This document shows positions 1 to 5,887 of a stretch of DNA of 5,887 nt, in pieces. A program made the position numbers and the translations under genes. Location: assembly GCF_003334815.1 (NCBI RefSeq), contig NZ_QOWO01000070.1. One strand, given 5' to 3'. A model generated the notes under the pieces. It was not told the origin of the DNA. It did no database searches and saw only the letters and a program-made list of their open reading frames with translations. This DNA comes from Escherichia coli. Lineage in GTDB: Bacteria; Pseudomonadota; Gammaproteobacteria; Enterobacterales; Enterobacteriaceae. The stretch's first letter is position 1; every line of letters begins with the position of its first letter.

Positions 1-95
1 ATCGACGATTGCTGGAAAGGCTGGGCCATACTCCTCCGGCAGAAGCAGAAAAAGCTTATTATGCTTCCATCGGAAACAATGATCTGGCAGCCTGA
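1..95 (+). CDS. C-terminal 31 codons of IS3-family transposase OrfB (partial; 5' end outside window)
   Basis: Reading from base 3 gives RRLLERLGHTPPAEAEKAYYASIGNNDLAA then TGA at 93..95. This is the same as the C-terminus of the 290-aa ORF at 3770..4642 except for one D to N change. Confidence 0.8.
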   Translation, partial: RRLLERLGHTPPAEAEKAYYASIGNNDLAA

Positions 96-112
96 GTTCA
101 CAGATAAAACAC

Positions 113-137
113 TCTCCAGGAAACCCGGGGCGGTTCA
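113..137. repeat. Terminal inverted repeat (IRR) of IS629-like copy 1, about 25 bp
   Basis: The reverse complement of the terminus, TGAACCGCCCCGGGTTTCCTGGAGA, matches the IRL at 5811 (TGAACCGCCCCGGGAATCCTGGAGA) at 23 of 25 positions. Exact IR length is approximate. Confidence 0.65.
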
Positions 138-145
138 CTTCCCAA

Positions 146-179
146 CCATAATATTTCTGTCATTTCTGCCCCCTATTAT
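146..179 (+). promoter_or_regulatory. Putative promoter of the phytase-like gene: a perfect Pho-box half-site CTGTCAT (157..163), a 10-bp spacer, and a -10-like TATTAT (174..179)
   Basis: CTGTCAT is the 7-bp PhoB half-site consensus, and its spacing to the -10 resembles PhoB-dependent promoters. The distal half-site (146..152, CCATAAT) is weak, and no canonical -35 is present. Confidence 0.25.
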
Positions 180-226
180 GACGTTGTTTTTACTTCTGAG
201 CGATAACAACGAAAAGAGACAATGAC

Positions 227-1570
227 ATGCACAACTCCAAAATCCGACAAGCTGTACTGGTTGGATGCATGACGCTGAGCGCTAACCTGTGGGCCGAAGC
301 GCAGCCGGTGCAGGCAACGCTGGCTGGGCATGCACTGTTGCCAGTAACATCCGCCGTTTCAACTCCGAAGGATGCGCCGAGCGATCTGCAACAGAGCGGC
401 AAATACACCAGCGGCAAACGCGTCACCGAGCTGGGCAGCGTGGCGGGCAAATCCGCAGATCGTCTGACTGGACTCGGCCTGCCGATCAACGGTCAGCCGT
501 TGCAGGGCCACTCAGGTATCAAACACATGCCCGACGGTACCTACTGGGTGCTGACTGACAACGGCTTCGGCAGCAAAGCCAACTCCCCGGACGCCATGTT
601 GTACCTCAACCACTACAAAATCGACTTCAAAGACGGCACGGTAGTACCGCTGAAGACGCTTTTCCTGCATGATCCGGATAAGAAGGTACCGTTCCACATC
701 ATCAACGAGAGTACCGAACAGCGCTATCTGACCGGCAGCGATTTTGATCCCGAAAGCTTCCAGTTTTCCGACAATGCCTTATGGATCGGTGATGAGTTCG
801 GTCCTTACCTGATCAAGACCGACCTGAACGGCAAGGTGCTGGCGGTGTTCGATACTGAAGTGGATGGAAAGGTGATTAAATCGCCGGACAACCCGACGCT
901 GACCCTACCTGGCGCGCCGGACGGCAAGCAGAATTTCCAGGTTGCGCGTTCCAAAGGCTTTGAAGGCATGGCCATCTCGCCGGACGGCAGTAAGCTGTAT
1001 CCGCTGTTGGAAGGGGCATTGTGGGACGGTGAGCAGTTCGAGAACGTTGGCGGAAAACGCTACCTGCGTATGCTGGAGTTCGACGTCAAACAGCAGGTCT
1101 GGACTGGTCGCAGCTGGCAGTACGTGCTGGAAGACAACCAGAACGCCATCGGCGACTTCAATATGATCGATGACACCCACGGGCTGGTGATCGAGCGCGA
1201 CAACGGCGAAGGCACTACGGATAAAGCCTGCGTCGTCGGTGCGCCGACCAACAACTGTTTCAGTCAAGTAGCCAAGTTCAAACGAGTGTATAAAATCGCT
1301 TTCTCGGACACTAACGTCGGTAAACCTGTCGAAAAACTGAGCTATATCGACCTGATGAATATTCAGGATCCGAACAAGCTGGCACGCAAGCCGCTGAGTG
1401 ACGGTGTGCTGACCTTCCCGTTTGTCACCATCGAGAACGTGGATGTGGTTGACGCGAACCACATTATTGTAGGCAACGATAATAACTTCCCGTTTTCCTC
1501 CAGCCGCTGGCCTAATATGGCGGATGACAACGAGTTTATTCTACTTAATGTGAAGAATTTTCTGAAGTAG
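227..1570 (+). CDS. Sec-secreted phytase-like beta-propeller protein (esterase-like activity of phytase type family), 447 aa; function uncharacterised
   Basis: Long ORF with an N-terminal Sec signal peptide (hydrophobic core LVGCMTLSANLWA followed by EAQ) and a weak RBS (AAGAGA) 8 nt upstream. Repeated motifs (DNGFG, GDEFGP, FEGMAISPDG, ERDNGEG, GNDNNFPF) look like the phytase-like fold. The family call is from memory, not a search. Confidence 0.7.
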   Translation: MHNSKIRQAVLVGCMTLSANLWAEAQPVQATLAGHALLPVTSAVSTPKDAPSDLQQSGKYTSGKRVTELGSVAGKSADRLTGLGLPINGQPLQGHSGIKHMPDGTYWVLTDNGFGSKANSPDAMLYLNHYKIDFKDGTVVPLKTLFLHDPDKKVPFHIINESTEQRYLTGSDFDPESFQFSDNALWIGDEFGPYLIKTDLNGKVLAVFDTEVDGKVIKSPDNPTLTLPGAPDGKQNFQVARSKGFEGMAISPDGSKLYPLLEGALWDGEQFENVGGKRYLRMLEFDVKQQVWTGRSWQYVLEDNQNAIGDFNMIDDTHGLVIERDNGEGTTDKACVVGAPTNNCFSQVAKFKRVYKIAFSDTNVGKPVEKLSYIDLMNIQDPNKLARKPLSDGVLTFPFVTIENVDVVDANHIIVGNDNNFPFSSSRWPNMADDNEFILLNVKNFLK

Positions 1571-1792
1571 GGGGGAGATCATCTCATCGCTTACCTTAAA
1601 ACTATCATAAGGGTTTACTTCCCTTCAGCGGCGCACAAGGCGCAGGCTTCTGGCTTTCAGTCTTATCCAGGAGGAACATACTGAAAGGCCTGAGTAAACA
1701 TGAATAAAAGGAATATTATATAACAGATGATTCTAAACCACGCGACAAAGCGTTGAAGGAAGCCTGCGCGCAGCATGACGGGGCTTTACCAT

Positions 1793-1826
1793 AAAAAAAC
1801 GCAGGCTAACCGCGCCTGCGTTTTTT
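1793..1826. terminator. Bidirectional rho-independent terminator shared by the convergent phytase-like gene and phoX
   Basis: A perfect 8-bp GC-rich stem (ACGCAGGC at 1799..1806 pairing with GCCTGCGT at 1814..1821) with a 7-nt loop, flanked by an A7 run (1793..1799) and a T6 run (1821..1826). It lies 20 bp downstream of the phoX stop. Confidence 0.8.
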
Positions 1827-1845
1827 ATGACGGATGAAGCAGAAA

Positions 1846-3825
1846 TCAGGTGCCGATCATACCGCCGTCGGCTTTCACGATAACGACGGTTGAGGAACGC
1901 GGACGACTGGCCTTATCGCCGTCGGGCCAGCTTGATACTGCCGTCGGATGCTGCGGATCGCTCAGCCCTTCGGCTGGCTCGCCAGGGTGCTGGATGTTAA
2001 TAAACAGCGTCCGGTTATCCGGCGTGAACGCGATGCCGGTGATTTCGCAGCCACGCGGGCCGGTCAGGAAGCGGCGAAACTCGTTGGTACCGGGGATCGT
2101 CGCCACCATCTGGTTGTTGCCCATGCCTTCGTAATCTTTACGGTTGATGGTTGATGACGACACGTCGGTCTGGATCCACAGCACGCCGCGGTGATCGAAG
2201 CTCAGGCCGTCGGCGCTGCCGAATTCCGCGCCCTTCATGCTACCTTTGGCTTCCGGTTTGTCAGTATCGGTGCGACCGCCCATCACCAGAATATCCCAGG
2301 CGAACTGCAGCGCGGTCGGGTCGCCGTTCTGCTCCAGCCAGTGAATGATGTGACCGTAAACGTTTTTGCCGCGCGGGTTGGCCGCATCCACCGGCGCTTT
2401 GCCTTCCTTACCGCGATCGCTGTTGTTGGTGAGCGTGCAGTAAACGCTGCCTGTGTGGTATGGATCAACCGCAATCCACTCCGGGCGGTCCATTTTGGTG
2501 GCGCCCACGGCGTCTGCCGCCAGACGGGTTTTAATCAGCAGGTCGCCCTGGTTTTCAAAGCCTTTGCTGGCGTCAAGCCCGTTTTGGCCGAACACCAGCG
2601 GTAGCCACTCGCCTTTGCCGTCATCGTTAAATTTCGCCACATACAGCGTGCCTTTCTCCAGCAGGCGCATGTTGGCTTTGCGATCCCGCGGGTTGAATTT
2701 GCCTTCCGAGACAAATTTATAGATGTATTCGAATTTCTGGTCATCGCCCATATAAACCACAACGCGGTTATCCGGGGCGAGCGTCACCGCCGCGCCTTCG
2801 TGCTTGATGCGGCCAAGCGCGGTGTGCTTGCGCGGCACTGAATGCGGATCGTATGGATCGATTTCCACCACCCAGCCGAAGCGGTTCGGCTCGTTCGGCG
2901 TGACGTCAACGCTGAAACGCTTATCCACTTCGTTCCAGCGGTAAGAGCCGTCGCTGTCGCTGATGCCGTAACGTTTTTCCAGCGGGTTCATCTCCGCTTT
3001 TTTCACGAAAATATCGGACCAGTTCTCTTCGCACGTCAGATAGGTGCCCCACGGCGTAAAACCGTTGGCGCAGTTCTGCATGGTGCCGAGAATGGTTTCG
3101 CCTTTCGGATCGTCAGCCGTTTGCATCAGCGGGTTATGCAGCGCCGGGCCGGTGATTTTCATCGGCGTGTTAACGGTGATGCGGCGCGCGAAAGATGACG
3201 GGCGCACCACTTCCCAGCCCTGGGCCGCTTTTTTTACTTCAATGACCGACACGCCCATTGCGTTCTGTCCTTTCAGCGCTTTATCAGCGCTCCAGTTGGC
3301 ATCGCCATCTTTAAACAGCAGACCGTTATCGATGTATTCATGGTTCATGGCGAGCAGGCCGTGATCGACGCTGTGCCCGCCCTGCGGCAGGCTAAACCAC
3401 GCCATACCGTCGTGGTGCATCCCGGCCTGCGCCGCCTGCTCTTCCGTGGTGTTGCTGCCGTCGGTTTTAAAAACCGGCTGATTCCCGGCAAGCCCGGTGG
3501 CGTCGCCCCATTTGTATAAGGGCTTCGCGATGTAGCCTTCCGGCACGATAACGGTATCTTCCGTGGAAACCGGCAGACTGGTGAAACCGAGCGCCGTCGC
3601 TTTGCCGAGGTTACCGCTTACGCTGGAGACCGCTTTCGCCAGCGCGTTTTCCGGTTTCAGCAGAAACGGGAACGTTGCCGCGGCACCGGCGACCGCGCCT
3701 GTCTGTAACAGGCGGCGGCGCGACAAATAGACTTCCGCCACCTGCGAAAACGCGCGGTTATCACTCGGGTTGCTGGTCTCTTCACTATGCTCACGTTTGA
3801 ATAAAGTTTTTAACGATCTGCCCAT
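1846..3825 (-). CDS. phoX: PhoX-family alkaline phosphatase/phosphodiesterase, Tat-exported, 659 aa
   Basis: N-terminal twin-arginine motif LSRRRLLQTGAVAGAAATFPFL followed by an AxA-type cleavage region (ALAKA). Size and beta-propeller-like composition are typical of PhoX, including a WGTYLTCEENW motif. An RBS (AAGGAAA) lies about 8 nt upstream of the ATG at 3825. Confidence 0.8.
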   Translation of the reverse strand: MGRSLKTLFKREHSEETSNPSDNRAFSQVAEVYLSRRRLLQTGAVAGAAATFPFLLKPENALAKAVSSVSGNLGKATALGFTSLPVSTEDTVIVPEGYIAKPLYKWGDATGLAGNQPVFKTDGSNTTEEQAAQAGMHHDGMAWFSLPQGGHSVDHGLLAMNHEYIDNGLLFKDGDANWSADKALKGQNAMGVSVIEVKKAAQGWEVVRPSSFARRITVNTPMKITGPALHNPLMQTADDPKGETILGTMQNCANGFTPWGTYLTCEENWSDIFVKKAEMNPLEKRYGISDSDGSYRWNEVDKRFSVDVTPNEPNRFGWVVEIDPYDPHSVPRKHTALGRIKHEGAAVTLAPDNRVVVYMGDDQKFEYIYKFVSEGKFNPRDRKANMRLLEKGTLYVAKFNDDGKGEWLPLVFGQNGLDASKGFENQGDLLIKTRLAADAVGATKMDRPEWIAVDPYHTGSVYCTLTNNSDRGKEGKAPVDAANPRGKNVYGHIIHWLEQNGDPTALQFAWDILVMGGRTDTDKPEAKGSMKGAEFGSADGLSFDHRGVLWIQTDVSSSTINRKDYEGMGNNQMVATIPGTNEFRRFLTGPRGCEITGIAFTPDNRTLFINIQHPGEPAEGLSDPQHPTAVSSWPDGDKASRPRSSTVVIVKADGGMIGT

Positions 3826-4642
3826 TGCGGTTTCCTTTCAAAAAATCGATTTCAAGGGGAATCATTTTTATGCACGTGAGTCTACGGAAAGTATGTTACA
3901 GAAATATAATGAGATACAGCGCGTATACGATGAAAATCATCAGGTGTACGGTGTGCGTAAAGTCTGGCATCAGTTGTTACGGGAAGGAATCAGGGTGGCC
4001 AGATGTACAGTGGCGCGCCTCATGGCGGTTATGGAACTTGCCGGTGTTCTCCGGGGTAAAAAGGTCCGCACAACCGTCAGCCGGAAAGCCGTTGCCGCAG
4101 GCGACCGCGTAAACCGTCAGTTCGTGGCAGAACGTCCAGACCTGTTGTGGGTGGCTGATTTTACTTACGTCAGCACATGGCAGGGCTTTGTTTATGTGGC
4201 GTTCATCATTGATGTGTTTGCCGGATACATCGTGGGATGGCAGGTCTCATCGTCCATGGAAACGACATTCGTGCTGGATGCACTGGAGCAGGCGTTGTGG
4301 GCCCGTCGGCCGTCCGGCACAATTCATCACAGCGATAAAGGCACTCAGTATGTATCGCTGGCCTACACGCAGCGGCTTAAGGAAGCCGGATTACTGGCAT
4401 CAACAGGAAGTACTGGTGACTCGTATGACAACGCGATGGCGGAGAGCATCAATGGTCTTTACAAGGCGGAGGTAATACACCGTAAGAGCTGGAAAAACCG
4501 GACAGAAGTGGAGCAGGCCACACTCACGTGGGTGGACTGGTATAACAATCGACGATTGCTGGAAAGGCTGGGCCATACTCCCCCGGCAGAAGCAGAAAAA
4601 GCTTATTATGCTTCTATCGGAAACGATGATCTGGCAGCCTGA
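3770..4642 (+). CDS. IS3-family transposase OrfB (DDE integrase core), 5'-truncated fragment; the first 45 or so codons of this ORF are not IS-derived, so it is probably non-functional
   Basis: DDE-type motifs are present (WVADFTYV, HHSDKGTQYVS, AESINGLYKAEV) and the C-terminus LERLGHTPPAEAEKAYY is typical of IS3-family OrfB. There is no upstream orfA or frameshift window, and the ORF's 5' end overlaps the phoX start on the other strand. Confidence 0.8.
   Translation: MLVSSLCSRLNKVFNDLPIAVSFQKIDFKGNHFYARESTESMLQKYNEIQRVYDENHQVYGVRKVWHQLLREGIRVARCTVARLMAVMELAGVLRGKKVRTTVSRKAVAAGDRVNRQFVAERPDLLWVADFTYVSTWQGFVYVAFIIDVFAGYIVGWQVSSSMETTFVLDALEQALWARRPSGTIHHSDKGTQYVSLAYTQRLKEAGLLASTGSTGDSYDNAMAESINGLYKAEVIHRKSWKNRTEVEQATLTWVDWYNNRRLLERLGHTPPAEAEKAYYASIGNDDLAA
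3864..3901 (-). promoter_or_regulatory. Candidate phoX promoter: -10-like ATAAAAAT with a weak Pho-box-like CTGTAACATACTTTCCGT about 12 bp upstream (on the phoX-sense strand)
   Basis: Position and spacing relative to the phoX ATG are plausible. The proximal half-site matches the consensus poorly. The site lies at the junction with the truncated IS copy. Confidence 0.2.
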
Positions 4643-4684
4643 GTTCACAGATAAAACACTCTCCAGGAAACCCGGGGCGGTTCA
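3905..4684 (+). mobile_element. 5'-truncated IS3-family (IS629/IS1203-like) copy 2: the 3' roughly 60 percent of the element, with IRR but no IRL and no orfA
   Basis: Recognisable OrfB sequence starts around EIQRVYDENHQVYGVRKVW (about 3911) and runs to the terminus ...CGGTTCA at 4684. Upstream of about 3905 the DNA is the phoX 5' region. The left boundary is approximate, give or take about 15 bp. Confidence 0.8.
4660..4684. repeat. Terminal inverted repeat (IRR) of IS629-like copy 2
   Basis: Same terminus as 113..137. Similarity to 1..137 ends exactly after TTCA at 4684. Confidence 0.65.
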
Positions 4685-4705
4685 CAATTTTCTTCAACTG
4701 CAGGA

Positions 4706-4735
4706 CCTGACGGAAAACAAGTGATTTCCGTCAGG
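4706..4735. repeat. Perfect 11-bp inverted repeat (hairpin) CCTGACGGAAA / TTTCCGTCAGG with an 8-nt loop, 21 bp outside the IS629-like right end
   Basis: The two arms are exact reverse complements, read directly from the sequence. No U-run follows on either strand, so it is not a canonical intrinsic terminator. Confidence 0.6.
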
Positions 4736-4951
4736 GAGAAATCGCTTAGCGGGTGTTATCGCAGAAATTCCCACGGAGCCCCATCAACGCCAACCGGTGT
4801 ATATTTCATTTGTGGAGTCTCCAGTCTGAGGGAGCTTTATGCATCCCGTATTGGGCACTATGATGCCGGAAATCTGCGAGGCTCCACACCTGCCAGTTTC
4901 ACCCTTTTAACCATCATACTGCTCCGTGTTTAATTGTGTGGGATGCGTTCA

Positions 4952-5122
4952 TTACATTTTCACCATTTTGCCACTGCGGCCCCGGAAGACGAAGATATGC
5001 CCGGAGAACGGGTCATCTTTCAGCGTGTTCTGCACCTTCGAAGCTAGGCCGTTGAAGCCACAACGCATATCTGTGATGCCAGCGATGATCCAGATTCTGG
5101 TACCGGTCGGCAGCGTTATCAT
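4952..5122 (-). CDS. tnpB: IS66-family TnpB (orf2), truncated: 56 aa where about 115 aa is expected
   Basis: My own translation of the minus strand gives MITLPTGTRIWIIAGITDMRCGFNGLASKVQNTLKDDPFSGHIFVFRGRSGKMVKM then a stop, carrying the IS66 TnpB hallmarks (TDMR.GF.GL, DPFSGH.FVFRGR). Its ATG overlaps the upstream ORF's TGA as ATGA, the usual IS66 orf1/orf2 coupling. No frame continues the TnpB sequence beyond 4952. Confidence 0.7.
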   Translation of the reverse strand: MITLPTGTRIWIIAGITDMRCGFNGLASKVQNTLKDDPFSGHIFVFRGRSGKMVKM

Positions 5123-5796
5123 CGGATCCCCCCTTTCATTTCGCGAATGAGCACCCTAAGAAGTTCCGGAGTGAGAGGGGCAAACAGTTTTACCACACCT
5201 GATTTAAGATGCAGCTCACACTGTGGTGAGTCTACGGTAGTGTCACTCTGGCTTTCATCAGACTTATTTCGCCAGAAAGGATTTGTCACCGGTTTGACGG
5301 GGTCAGGAGTCTCAGTGATTGCCACCGGAACGGCCTGGCATTCCTGGAGATCCTCATCATTCAGCAAGCCCTCTTCATACAGTCTTTTCCAGTTAAACAA
5401 CAGATTGTCATTAATATTGTGCTCTCTGGCGATCCGTGCAACGACTGCACCAGGCTGTAATGCCTGTTTTACCAGCCTGATTTTAAATTCACGACTGTAG
5501 GAGGTTCGTCGTTCTTTTCGCCATGTGCTTTCGCTGATTTGAGGATCATCAGGTAATTCCTTCTTTCTGTTGGCATAAAGTATGGCATCGAGTTGGGCGA
5601 CTGAAAGTGATTCAGGTAATGGCCAGGTAATACCGGAGGCATTAAATCGTTGAAAGAGATTATGAATGGTGGAATGACTGAGACCTAACTGCAGGGCGAT
5701 AGCCCGGACAGATAATTGCTCGTCGAATCTTAGACGTAATGCGTCTGGCAAATAAGAGCGAAAGCCGGTGATATCTTTTGCTGTCTGAGAATTCAT
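5119..5796 (-). CDS. tnpA: IS66-family TnpA (orf1)-like HTH protein (C-terminal 130 aa or so) with an N-terminal 90 aa or so resembling an IS21-family IstA HTH; a possible in-frame chimera
   Basis: The C-terminal part (RRTSYSREFKIRLVKQALQPGAVVARIAREHNINDNLLFNWKRLYEEG ... ELHLKSGVVKLFAPLTPELLRVLIREMK) has the IS66 orf1 HTH and C-terminal pattern and is translationally coupled to tnpB. The N-terminal part (LSVRAIALQLGLSHSTIHNLFQRFNASGITWPLPESLSVAQLDAILY) resembles the IstA N-terminus with its WPLP motif. Both calls are from memory. Confidence 0.6.
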   Translation of the reverse strand: MNSQTAKDITGFRSYLPDALRLRFDEQLSVRAIALQLGLSHSTIHNLFQRFNASGITWPLPESLSVAQLDAILYANRKKELPDDPQISESTWRKERRTSYSREFKIRLVKQALQPGAVVARIAREHNINDNLLFNWKRLYEEGLLNDEDLQECQAVPVAITETPDPVKPVTNPFWRNKSDESQSDTTVDSPQCELHLKSGVVKLFAPLTPELLRVLIREMKGGIR

Positions 5797-5810
5797 CGTT
5801 CGTGTCCATC

Positions 5811-5835
5811 TGAACCGCCCCGGGAATCCTGGAGA
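5811..5835. repeat. Terminal inverted repeat (IRL) of IS629-like copy 3
   Basis: Matches the reverse complement of the right-end termini at 23 of 25 positions. Confidence 0.7.
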
Positions 5836-5863
5836 CTAAACTTCCTGAGAAAGAGGTAAACAG

Positions 5864-5887
5864 GATGACTAAAAATACTCGTTTTTC
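5864..5887 (+). CDS. N-terminus of IS3-family OrfA (MTKNTRF...), partial at the window edge
   Basis: An ATG 53 bp inside the IRL with an upstream AGAGG. MTKNTRF is the start of the IS629/IS1203-type OrfA as I remember it. Confidence 0.7.

Follow-up and report, generated by a model that had tools for sequence, protein, structure and literature searches.

How did a phytase-like gene and the alkaline phosphatase gene phoX come to lie side by side in Escherichia coli between same-orientation copies of one insertion sequence (IS), and what moves them now? The question is raised by a 5,887-bp stretch of E. coli DNA (contig NZ_QOWO01000070.1 of RefSeq assembly GCF_003334815.1; hereafter, the window), which an initial annotation, made from the sequence alone, read as an IS-captured phosphate-scavenging pair rather than core chromosome. 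Three pieces of IS629-like sequence, all on the + strand, lie at 1–137 (copy 1), 3908–4684 (copy 2) and 5811–5887 (copy 3), and both genes lie between copies 1 and 2. We consider it probable that the window comes from an IncFII-type, virulence-gene-bearing Escherichia plasmid, and that its compact cargo is a mosaic module, in which a Serratia-type gene of family PF13449 and a Cronobacter-type phoX were placed tail to tail, bracketed by IS629 and moved mainly by homologous recombination.

Origins and plasmid setting of the two genes

The two genes are intact and lie between copies 1 and 2, as initially described. The phytase-like gene (227–1570, + strand) encodes a secreted protein of 447 amino acids with a Sec-type N terminus. 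It matches PF13449 (‘esterase-like activity of phytase’) over the entire model (E = 1e-60, model positions 1–284 of 284) and is predicted to fold as a β-propeller (pLDDT 91); a sequence search turned up no relative with a solved structure, and the literature passages that we retrieved state nothing about the activity of the family. In a scan of one genome per species (100,044 species), the closest relatives of the protein are those of the Serratia marcescens group (92.6–92.8% amino acid identity), followed by those of Yersinia. At the DNA level, the match to S. marcescens-group chromosomes (89–90%) is limited to 148–1570, that is, to the gene and approximately 80 bp upstream. The Serratia-type segment (148–1584, + strand) thus holds only the phytase-like gene and its promoter, and is separated from the right inverted repeat (IRR) of copy 1 by a 10-bp linker, cttcccaacc (138–147). 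The neighbours of the gene in Serratia, a CynX-like MFS transporter and an integrase, were not carried into the window, and neither was its native terminator, which was lost at the junction at 1585–1593.

The second gene, phoX (1846–3825, − strand), encodes a 659-amino-acid PhoX alkaline phosphatase that matches PF05787 over its full length (E = 4e-167). It also matches Pseudomonas fluorescens PhoX (3zwu; E = 9e-168, residues 72–658), and the two belong to the same family (PDB 3zwu/4a9v), an assignment based on the match of the whole domain rather than on a comparison of active-site residues. The P. fluorescens enzyme is exported by the twin-arginine (Tat) pathway. In the window protein, residues 34–53 (SRRRLLQTGAVAGAAA) form a twin-arginine signal, for which the Pfam TAT_signal match (E = 0.003) is weak when taken alone. 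No NCBIfam model matched either PhoX or the phytase-like protein.

The closest relatives of this phoX are found in a different genus. Its protein is 97.4% identical to PhoX of Cronobacter sakazakii and falls in a 90%-identity cluster of Cronobacter and Escherichia sequences, with Franconibacter next at 81%. The Cronobacter-type segment (1594–3909, − strand) includes the start of an ABC ATPase gene, an intergenic region with a terminator, phoX and the phoX promoter. It is colinear with a Cronobacter locus (L088, 10236–7917) at 94.4% nucleotide identity, and the part at 1789–3909 is 95.9% identical to the locus that encodes P0139, a protein named C. sakazakii. The first bases of the segment (1594–1608) correspond, in reverse complement, to the 15 nt with which the ABC ATPase gene next to phoX in Cronobacter begins. 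In its chromosomal setting, Cronobacter phoX has an MFS sugar transporter on one side and a metNIQ-like ABC transporter on the other. The gene, its Pho-box promoter, the terminator and these 15 nt are colinear in the window at 94–96% identity, whereas the Cronobacter locus has no IS and no phytase-like neighbour, and only in the window is the Pho box clipped on its upstream side by an IS junction. The bidirectional terminator between the genes (1797–1817) is inherited from Cronobacter; in the window it does duty for the phytase-like gene as well, whose own terminator is gone.

The two segments meet at a 9-base filler, catcgctta (1585–1593), without an IS scar. Among 80 species loci with the phytase-like gene, none has a close phoX within 7 kb, and an adjacent phoX occurs in just two Comamonadaceae metagenome-assembled genomes, where it is distant (36–37% identity). 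The situation that the initial annotation set against IS capture, the same pair in relatives without the IS, was not encountered: neither the 80 species genomes that have the phytase-like gene nor Cronobacter, the native host of phoX, yielded an IS-free locus in which the two genes are adjacent. Because the two blocks match different genera and no close relative has both genes adjacent, the ‘gene pair’ is, judged by sequence, a chimera of Serratia-type and Cronobacter-type DNA and not a native pair.

The chimera is carried on plasmids. Positions 1–4782 of the window are 100% identical to the E. coli plasmid pJNE25-005_2 (L001), which has an IncFII replicon, and positions 1–5810 are 100% identical to four contigs found through their exact PhoX protein (L090, L094, L098 and L099). 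Contig L095 is also 100% identical but contiguous only to 5168, beyond which it matches in rearranged pieces; L091 differs from the window at one position and L096 at three. In the matching contigs, the gene order is a fimbrial usher, a 1,370-amino-acid S6 autotransporter, an IS66-like element, truncated IS629 (copy 2), phoX, the phytase-like gene, IS629 copy 1, a two-partner secretion (TPS) pair and fragments of type VI secretion system (T6SS) genes. The same inner junctions occur on other backbones, including a RepB (RepFIB-type) plasmid with CFA/III pilus genes, a 34-kb poultry plasmid, IncI-gamma/K1 plasmids of Escherichia albertii, an IncFIA/FII plasmid and a contig with a heat-stable enterotoxin gene. 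The window both starts and ends inside IS629, like a short-read contig bounded by repeats.

The pair is rare. It is adjacent in 4 of 5,426 complete E. coli genomes, in each case at 99% identity or more, on a plasmid and beside IS DNA. Counted singly, the two genes occur in 132 and 229 of these genomes, and all matches of at least 99% identity are plasmid-borne. In the papers that our literature searches returned, neither plasmid-borne phoX in Escherichia nor this module is described.

IS629 copies and movement of the module

A repeat finder pairs 1–138 with 4548–4685 as a direct repeat of 98% identity, and the 25-nt ends at 113–137 and 4660–4684 are each 92% complementary (23 of 25) to 5811–5835, as expected for two IRRs and one left inverted repeat (IRL). 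Repeats this long and this identical are beyond chance, which bears out the initial report of three direct-orientation pieces. Copy 1 (137 bp in the window) is a right end that corresponds to IS positions 1174–1310, with the last 30 codons of OrfB (3–95) and the IRR at 113–137. Copy 2 (777 bp) is truncated at its 5′ end and covers IS positions 534–1310 of a 1,310-bp element; alignment puts its start at 3908–3911, slightly to the right of the initial estimate of about 3905, and its IRR (4660–4684) is intact. It lacks a start, orfA and the IRL, and its OrfB frame is open for 243 codons and matches an NCBIfam IS3-family transposase (E = 7e-81, profile positions 138–369). Copy 3 (77 bp) is a left end, with the IRL at 5811–5835 and the ATG of orfA at 5865, and is 97.4% identical to the left end of copy 1.

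Copy 3 does not belong to the module. It is missing from six related contigs that are 99.95–100% identical to the window over 1–5810, in which ...gtccatc is followed, unbroken, by aatatagatgg...gcgcttac, the remaining left end of an IS66-family element. Because these six near-identical contigs supply its empty site, copy 3 is a separate, strain-specific and recent insertion of IS629 into the IS66-like element, unrelated to the capture of the phosphatase genes, and it has to be taken out of the arrangement that was initially proposed. In plasmid pWP8-S18-ESBL-07_1 (L089, 5024–5040), another IS3-family element is inserted 5 bp from the insertion point of copy 3 (window 5806–5811), which suggests that the left end of the IS66-like element is a local insertion hot spot.

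Copies 1 and 2 were initially taken for pieces of one element, although not a fresh duplication, and the second part of that statement holds, whereas the first is not supported. Within the window, they mismatch only at 35 (T/C), 68 (C/T) and 78 (A/G), and the OrfB tails, ...ASIGNNDLAA-stop in copy 1 and ...ASIGNDDLAA-stop in copy 2, confirm two synonymous changes and one D/N replacement. A full-length copy 1 is available from near-identical plasmids (99.95–99.98% over the shared stretch); it is complete in L001, L091 and L096, where it is 1,310 bp long and ends in 25-bp imperfect inverted repeats. The RefSeq annotation of copy 1 in L001 includes a programmed frameshift and an AL1L pseudoknot, whereas the window itself holds only partial open reading frames (ORFs). 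Over the 777 bp of copy 2, the two copies are 94.3% identical, and the 98% seen inside the window reflects a locally more similar stretch. The annotated IS629 of pO157 Sakai (E. coli O157:H7) has the same length of 1,310 bp, the same 25-bp ends (TGAACCGCC...) and the same orfA/orfB organization with a programmed frameshift, and is colinear with copy 1 from end to end at 96.2% identity; against the same reference, the truncated copy 2 reaches 94.3%. Among published IS629 subtypes, the difference is 4–5%, and IS1203 and IS3411 are isoforms of IS629 (PMC3271280). Because the 94.3% identity matches this gap between subtypes, copies 1 and 2 are different IS629 subtypes and not duplicates of one insertion.

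The flanking copies recombine. In L096, copy 1 carries 16 consecutive sites of the copy 2 type at IS positions 632–868, flanked by sites of the copy 1 type at 620 and 923, whereas there are only four differences in the adjoining 5.7 kb. This tract is a gene conversion of 237–302 bp, produced by homologous recombination either between the direct repeats or with another IS of the copy 2 type. Copy 1 also varies among otherwise near-identical plasmids, in which it is 99.0% identical, 97.9% identical or internally deleted; in L090, L094, L095 and L098 (13689–14585), it is present as an 897-bp form without IS positions 369–781, with a predicted 266-amino-acid fusion ORF spanning the gap. On other backbones, copy 1 is either inverted or reduced to a stump of 170 or 14 bp, and the module has its outer limits at or inside IS629 sequence.

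Some junctions show further rearrangement. In pRM14721 (L002), IS1 has trimmed copy 1 to its last 14 bp, and an extra ATCC (10015–10018) lies between the IRR and cttcccaacc. In CP099214.1 (L007, 4726–6025), the IS629-like element is inverted at the phytase-like junction, so that the IRL, not the IRR, abuts ctgcccaacc.

The initial annotation had expected direct repeats to mobilize, delete or amplify the intervening DNA. The conversion tract supports recombination between such repeats, but neither PLSDB nor the complete E. coli genomes yielded a derivative with a deletion or amplification of the module. A single hybrid IS in place of the module, joining the left and right flanks of L001, was absent from PLSDB, and a single IS joining the left flank of L001 to window positions 4685–5810 was absent from complete E. 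coli genomes; these empty-site searches are low in power, as the TPS flank is present in only one complete record and close relatives are few.

If the unit moved by itself, it would do so as an active composite transposon, in which copy 1 supplies the transposase, its IRL and the IRR of copy 2 serve as the outer ends, and the approximately 6-kb unit is transferred by copy-out/paste-in. We consider this unlikely. The ingredients are in place: the copies are direct, copy 1 is complete, with its annotated programmed frameshift, in relatives of the window, and both outer ends exist, the copy 1 IRL in those relatives and the copy 2 IRR, intact, in the window. The copy 2 IRR also adjoins different DNA in the window and L001 than in pRM14721. 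There is a precedent in Tn3411, a citrate-utilization composite transposon flanked by direct copies of IS3411, which likewise places metabolic cargo on enterobacterial plasmids between same-orientation copies of the IS629/IS3411/IS1203 group. Unlike in Tn3411, however, the second copy here lacks approximately the first 533 bp, the two copies are subtypes with 94.3% identity, no target-site duplication is present and the cargo consists of two phosphatase-type genes of different generic origin. The unit as a whole has no flanking duplication in L001 and related contigs (...GCAG before the copy 1 IRL, CAAT... after the copy 2 IRR), and none surrounds copy 1 (...GCAG / CTTC...), for which 3–4 bp would be expected after a simple insertion. 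The copy 1 IRL, the left outer end, is met in one context only, inside an IS600-like fragment, and copy 1 is elsewhere a stump or inverted; in contigs identical to the window, it lacks IS positions 369–781. Finally, the window and pJNE25-005_2 part exactly at 4782/4783, the tip of a Tn3-type repeat; because the divergence falls there and not at the IRR, the shared stretch runs 98 bp past copy 2. The completeness and target-site duplications of copies 1 and 3, which the initial annotation had singled out as informative, can be judged for copy 1: it is full-length (1,310 bp) in L001, L091 and L096 and 897 bp in four other contigs, and no duplications accompany it. Of the proposed IS-captured Pho module, the accessory, plasmid-borne and IS-bracketed character stands; its flanking copies are not one element, copy 3 is no part of it, and its gene pair is a chimera.

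Less likely still is that the IS pieces are inert debris and the module a static passenger of whole plasmids or larger segments, such as Tn3-family elements or large recombination patches. The truncation of copy 2, the frequent degradation of copy 1, the lack of target-site duplications and the failure to find deleted or amplified derivatives all fit such a history, as do the Tn3-type end at 4782 and the Tn3-family transposases that adjoin the module in L004, L093 and L097. The L096 tract shows, however, that the copies still recombine, and inert debris accounts poorly for the variation of copy 1 among near-identical plasmids and for module limits at or within IS629 in other backbones.

We thus favour an IS629-bracketed mosaic that moves mainly by homologous recombination. 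Two chromosomal genes of different genera would have been joined through successive IS-associated insertions, adjacent deletions and illegitimate joins, and their inner junctions would then have been kept while the module spread over at least four plasmid backbones in E. coli and E. albertii. Its present mobility would come from homologous recombination within the many IS629 copies of its hosts, plus larger carrying elements, with autonomous transposition contributing less probably. Several observations weigh against this history. The right boundary falls exactly at the copy 2 IRR in both of its contexts, as transposition also predicts; no intermediate stage of assembly was seen, and the order of events is inferred; the identities to donor DNA are 89–96%, not 99%, and the true donors are unsampled; and versions of both genes in E. 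coli chromosomal islands, described below, may reflect an older shared history.

Counterparts on E. coli chromosomes

Some E. coli chromosomes carry both genes at approximately 93–94% identity, 20 kb apart in an IS-rich tRNA-Phe island. In strain PK8261, both gene families lie among IS629-like, IS66 and IS110 elements, much as in the window. The phytase-like copy of the island matches window positions 144–1584 at 93%; it lies beside ugpB with an IS110 element between (L003, 5206–48000), and the island also contains an S6 autotransporter and many IS. It is nevertheless very improbable that the pair is a native chromosomal locus of its host that gained IS insertions, because the chromosomes that carry both families have them only at this identity and this distance in an IS-rich island, and because both genes are rare and every match of at least 99% identity is plasmid-borne.

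Protein identities are informative about how the island and plasmid versions are related. The plasmid and chromosomal PhoX proteins are 97.4% and 96.1% identical to that of C. sakazakii and only 94.4% identical to each other, which points to separate derivation of the two. The corresponding values for the phytase-like protein are 92.6–92.8% (plasmid) and 92.2–92.4% (chromosome) to Serratia and 93.1% between the two copies, so that by sequence the plasmid, chromosomal and Serratia versions are roughly equidistant. Each island gene is therefore as close or closer to Cronobacter or Serratia than to its plasmid counterpart, and separate acquisition or an old split is likely. We also considered a single capture event for chromosomal and plasmid phoX, whose stretches of upstream homology to Cronobacter stop no more than 6 bp apart; the lower mutual identity of the PhoX proteins argues against it.

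A left end of the same IS600-like type (MKKRNFSAE...) lies directly to the left of copy 1 (L001, 10600–10707) and approximately 600 bp upstream of the island phoX (L003, 17150–17280), which may be a coincidence or a trace of shared history. In addition, a 112-bp internal fragment of phoX (window 2852–2963) is present at 92–95% identity in many E. coli chromosomes and plasmids, with BL21-type strains among the carriers; it is labelled there as a remnant of an ‘alkaline phosphatase’ and resembles what would be left of an older phoX.

Promoters, predicted function and neighbouring elements

Copy 1 stops merely 10 bp before the conserved promoter region of the phytase-like gene. The putative PhoB-dependent promoter of this gene (146–179, + strand) consists of the Pho-box-like sequence CCATAATATTTCTGTCAT (146–163), a spacer of 10 nt and the −10 hexamer TATTAT (174–179). 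The box is the best match in the window to the E. coli Pho-box consensus (14/18), and its core ATAATATTTCTGTCA, followed by 10–11 nt and a −10 hexamer, is conserved upstream of the Serratia and Yersinia orthologues.

The putative phoX promoter (3874–3912, − strand) has the Pho box TCATTATATTTCTGTAAC (3895–3912, reverse complement), 10 nt and the −10 hexamer TAGACT. The native form of this box, (T/A)TGTTATAnnnnTGTAAC, followed by 10 nt and TAnACT, is kept in two Cronobacter-type loci (L088 and L103), in Franconibacter and Klebsiella and in the E. coli island copy. By contrast, the window and all plasmid copies have CATTAT where the native form has TGTTAT, as truncated IS629 is joined on within the upstream half-site, at the expense of the TG. 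The consensus score of the box is 12/18 in the window and 14/18 in the native form, the latter counted by hand; consensus matching of this kind is weak, with approximately 1.4 sites scoring at least 13 in shuffled sequence. Both genes thus appear trimmed to their own promoters, with the phoX Pho box slightly over-trimmed. We predict that PhoB controls both genes, and because the IS junction took two conserved bases of the Pho box, the induction of phoX may be weaker.

When phosphate is scarce, PhoB would activate both genes; PhoX would then leave the cytoplasm by Tat and the β-propeller protein by Sec, and both would release phosphate from organic esters. For the phytase-like protein, the predicted tie to phosphate comes from the name of its family and from the conserved Pho-box-like promoter. 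Escherichia may have assembled both families at least twice, as the plasmid pair and in the tRNA-Phe islands, and one could suppose that their co-occurrence was selected because the enzymes act in sequence on organic phosphate, for example with a diesterase or phytase-like step feeding a monoesterase. We regard this proposal, including the sequential action, as doubtful. If it were correct, an IS629-bounded unit would be spreading the use of organic phosphate among virulence plasmids of gut and avian strains, and if the enzymes improve growth on organic phosphate, plasmids with adhesin, autotransporter and enterotoxin genes would bring a nutritional trait along with them.

In structure, this is an ordinary IS-bounded accessory module, and it leaves the understanding of such modules unchanged. 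It is a well-resolved example of IS stitching single chromosomal genes from different genera into one compact plasmid unit, and it shows that the IS copies on either side continue to recombine. The novelty is descriptive: the mixed Serratia and Cronobacter origin, the trimming tight to the promoters with a clipped phoX Pho box, the conversion tract and the separateness of copy 3.

To the right of copy 2, the window continues through remnants of other mobile elements; a search of the whole window against Rfam, with gathering thresholds, returned nothing. The first remnant is the terminal 98 bp of an element (4685–4782, − strand) with a 38-bp inverted repeat at 4745–4782 (reverse complement GGGGCTCCGTGGGAATTTCTGCGATAACACCCGCTAAG), which we take to be of the Tn3 family from the form and length of the repeat (GGGG...CGCTAAG, 38 bp). 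Beyond 4782, pJNE25-005_2 enters a common IncF pemI region, whereas the window enters a 5′ fragment of an IS110-family (ISEc11-like) element (4783–4954, − strand), which is 99.5% identical to pWP8-S18-ESBL-07_1, where it is annotated. This fragment interrupts tnpB of the IS66-family element, the left part of which occupies 4952–5810 (− strand) and comprises the truncated tnpB (4952–5122, 56 amino acids), tnpA (5119–5796, 225 amino acids) and 14 nt upstream. NCBIfam matches support both genes (TnpA, E = 8e-88; TnpB, E = 1e-15), and in relatives the element extends to its GTAAGCG... end.

We examined whether a pair of Tn3-type repeats bounds a larger transposon in pJNE25-005_2 (L001, 6633–16662), and rejected this, as the flanks (TACGA and TTAAA) do not match. 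In the same plasmid, the identical 38-bp repeat and a diverged partner bound a 295-bp miniature element (6633–6927) that interrupts a T6SS sheath gene, and the window keeps the last 98 bp of a relative of this element.

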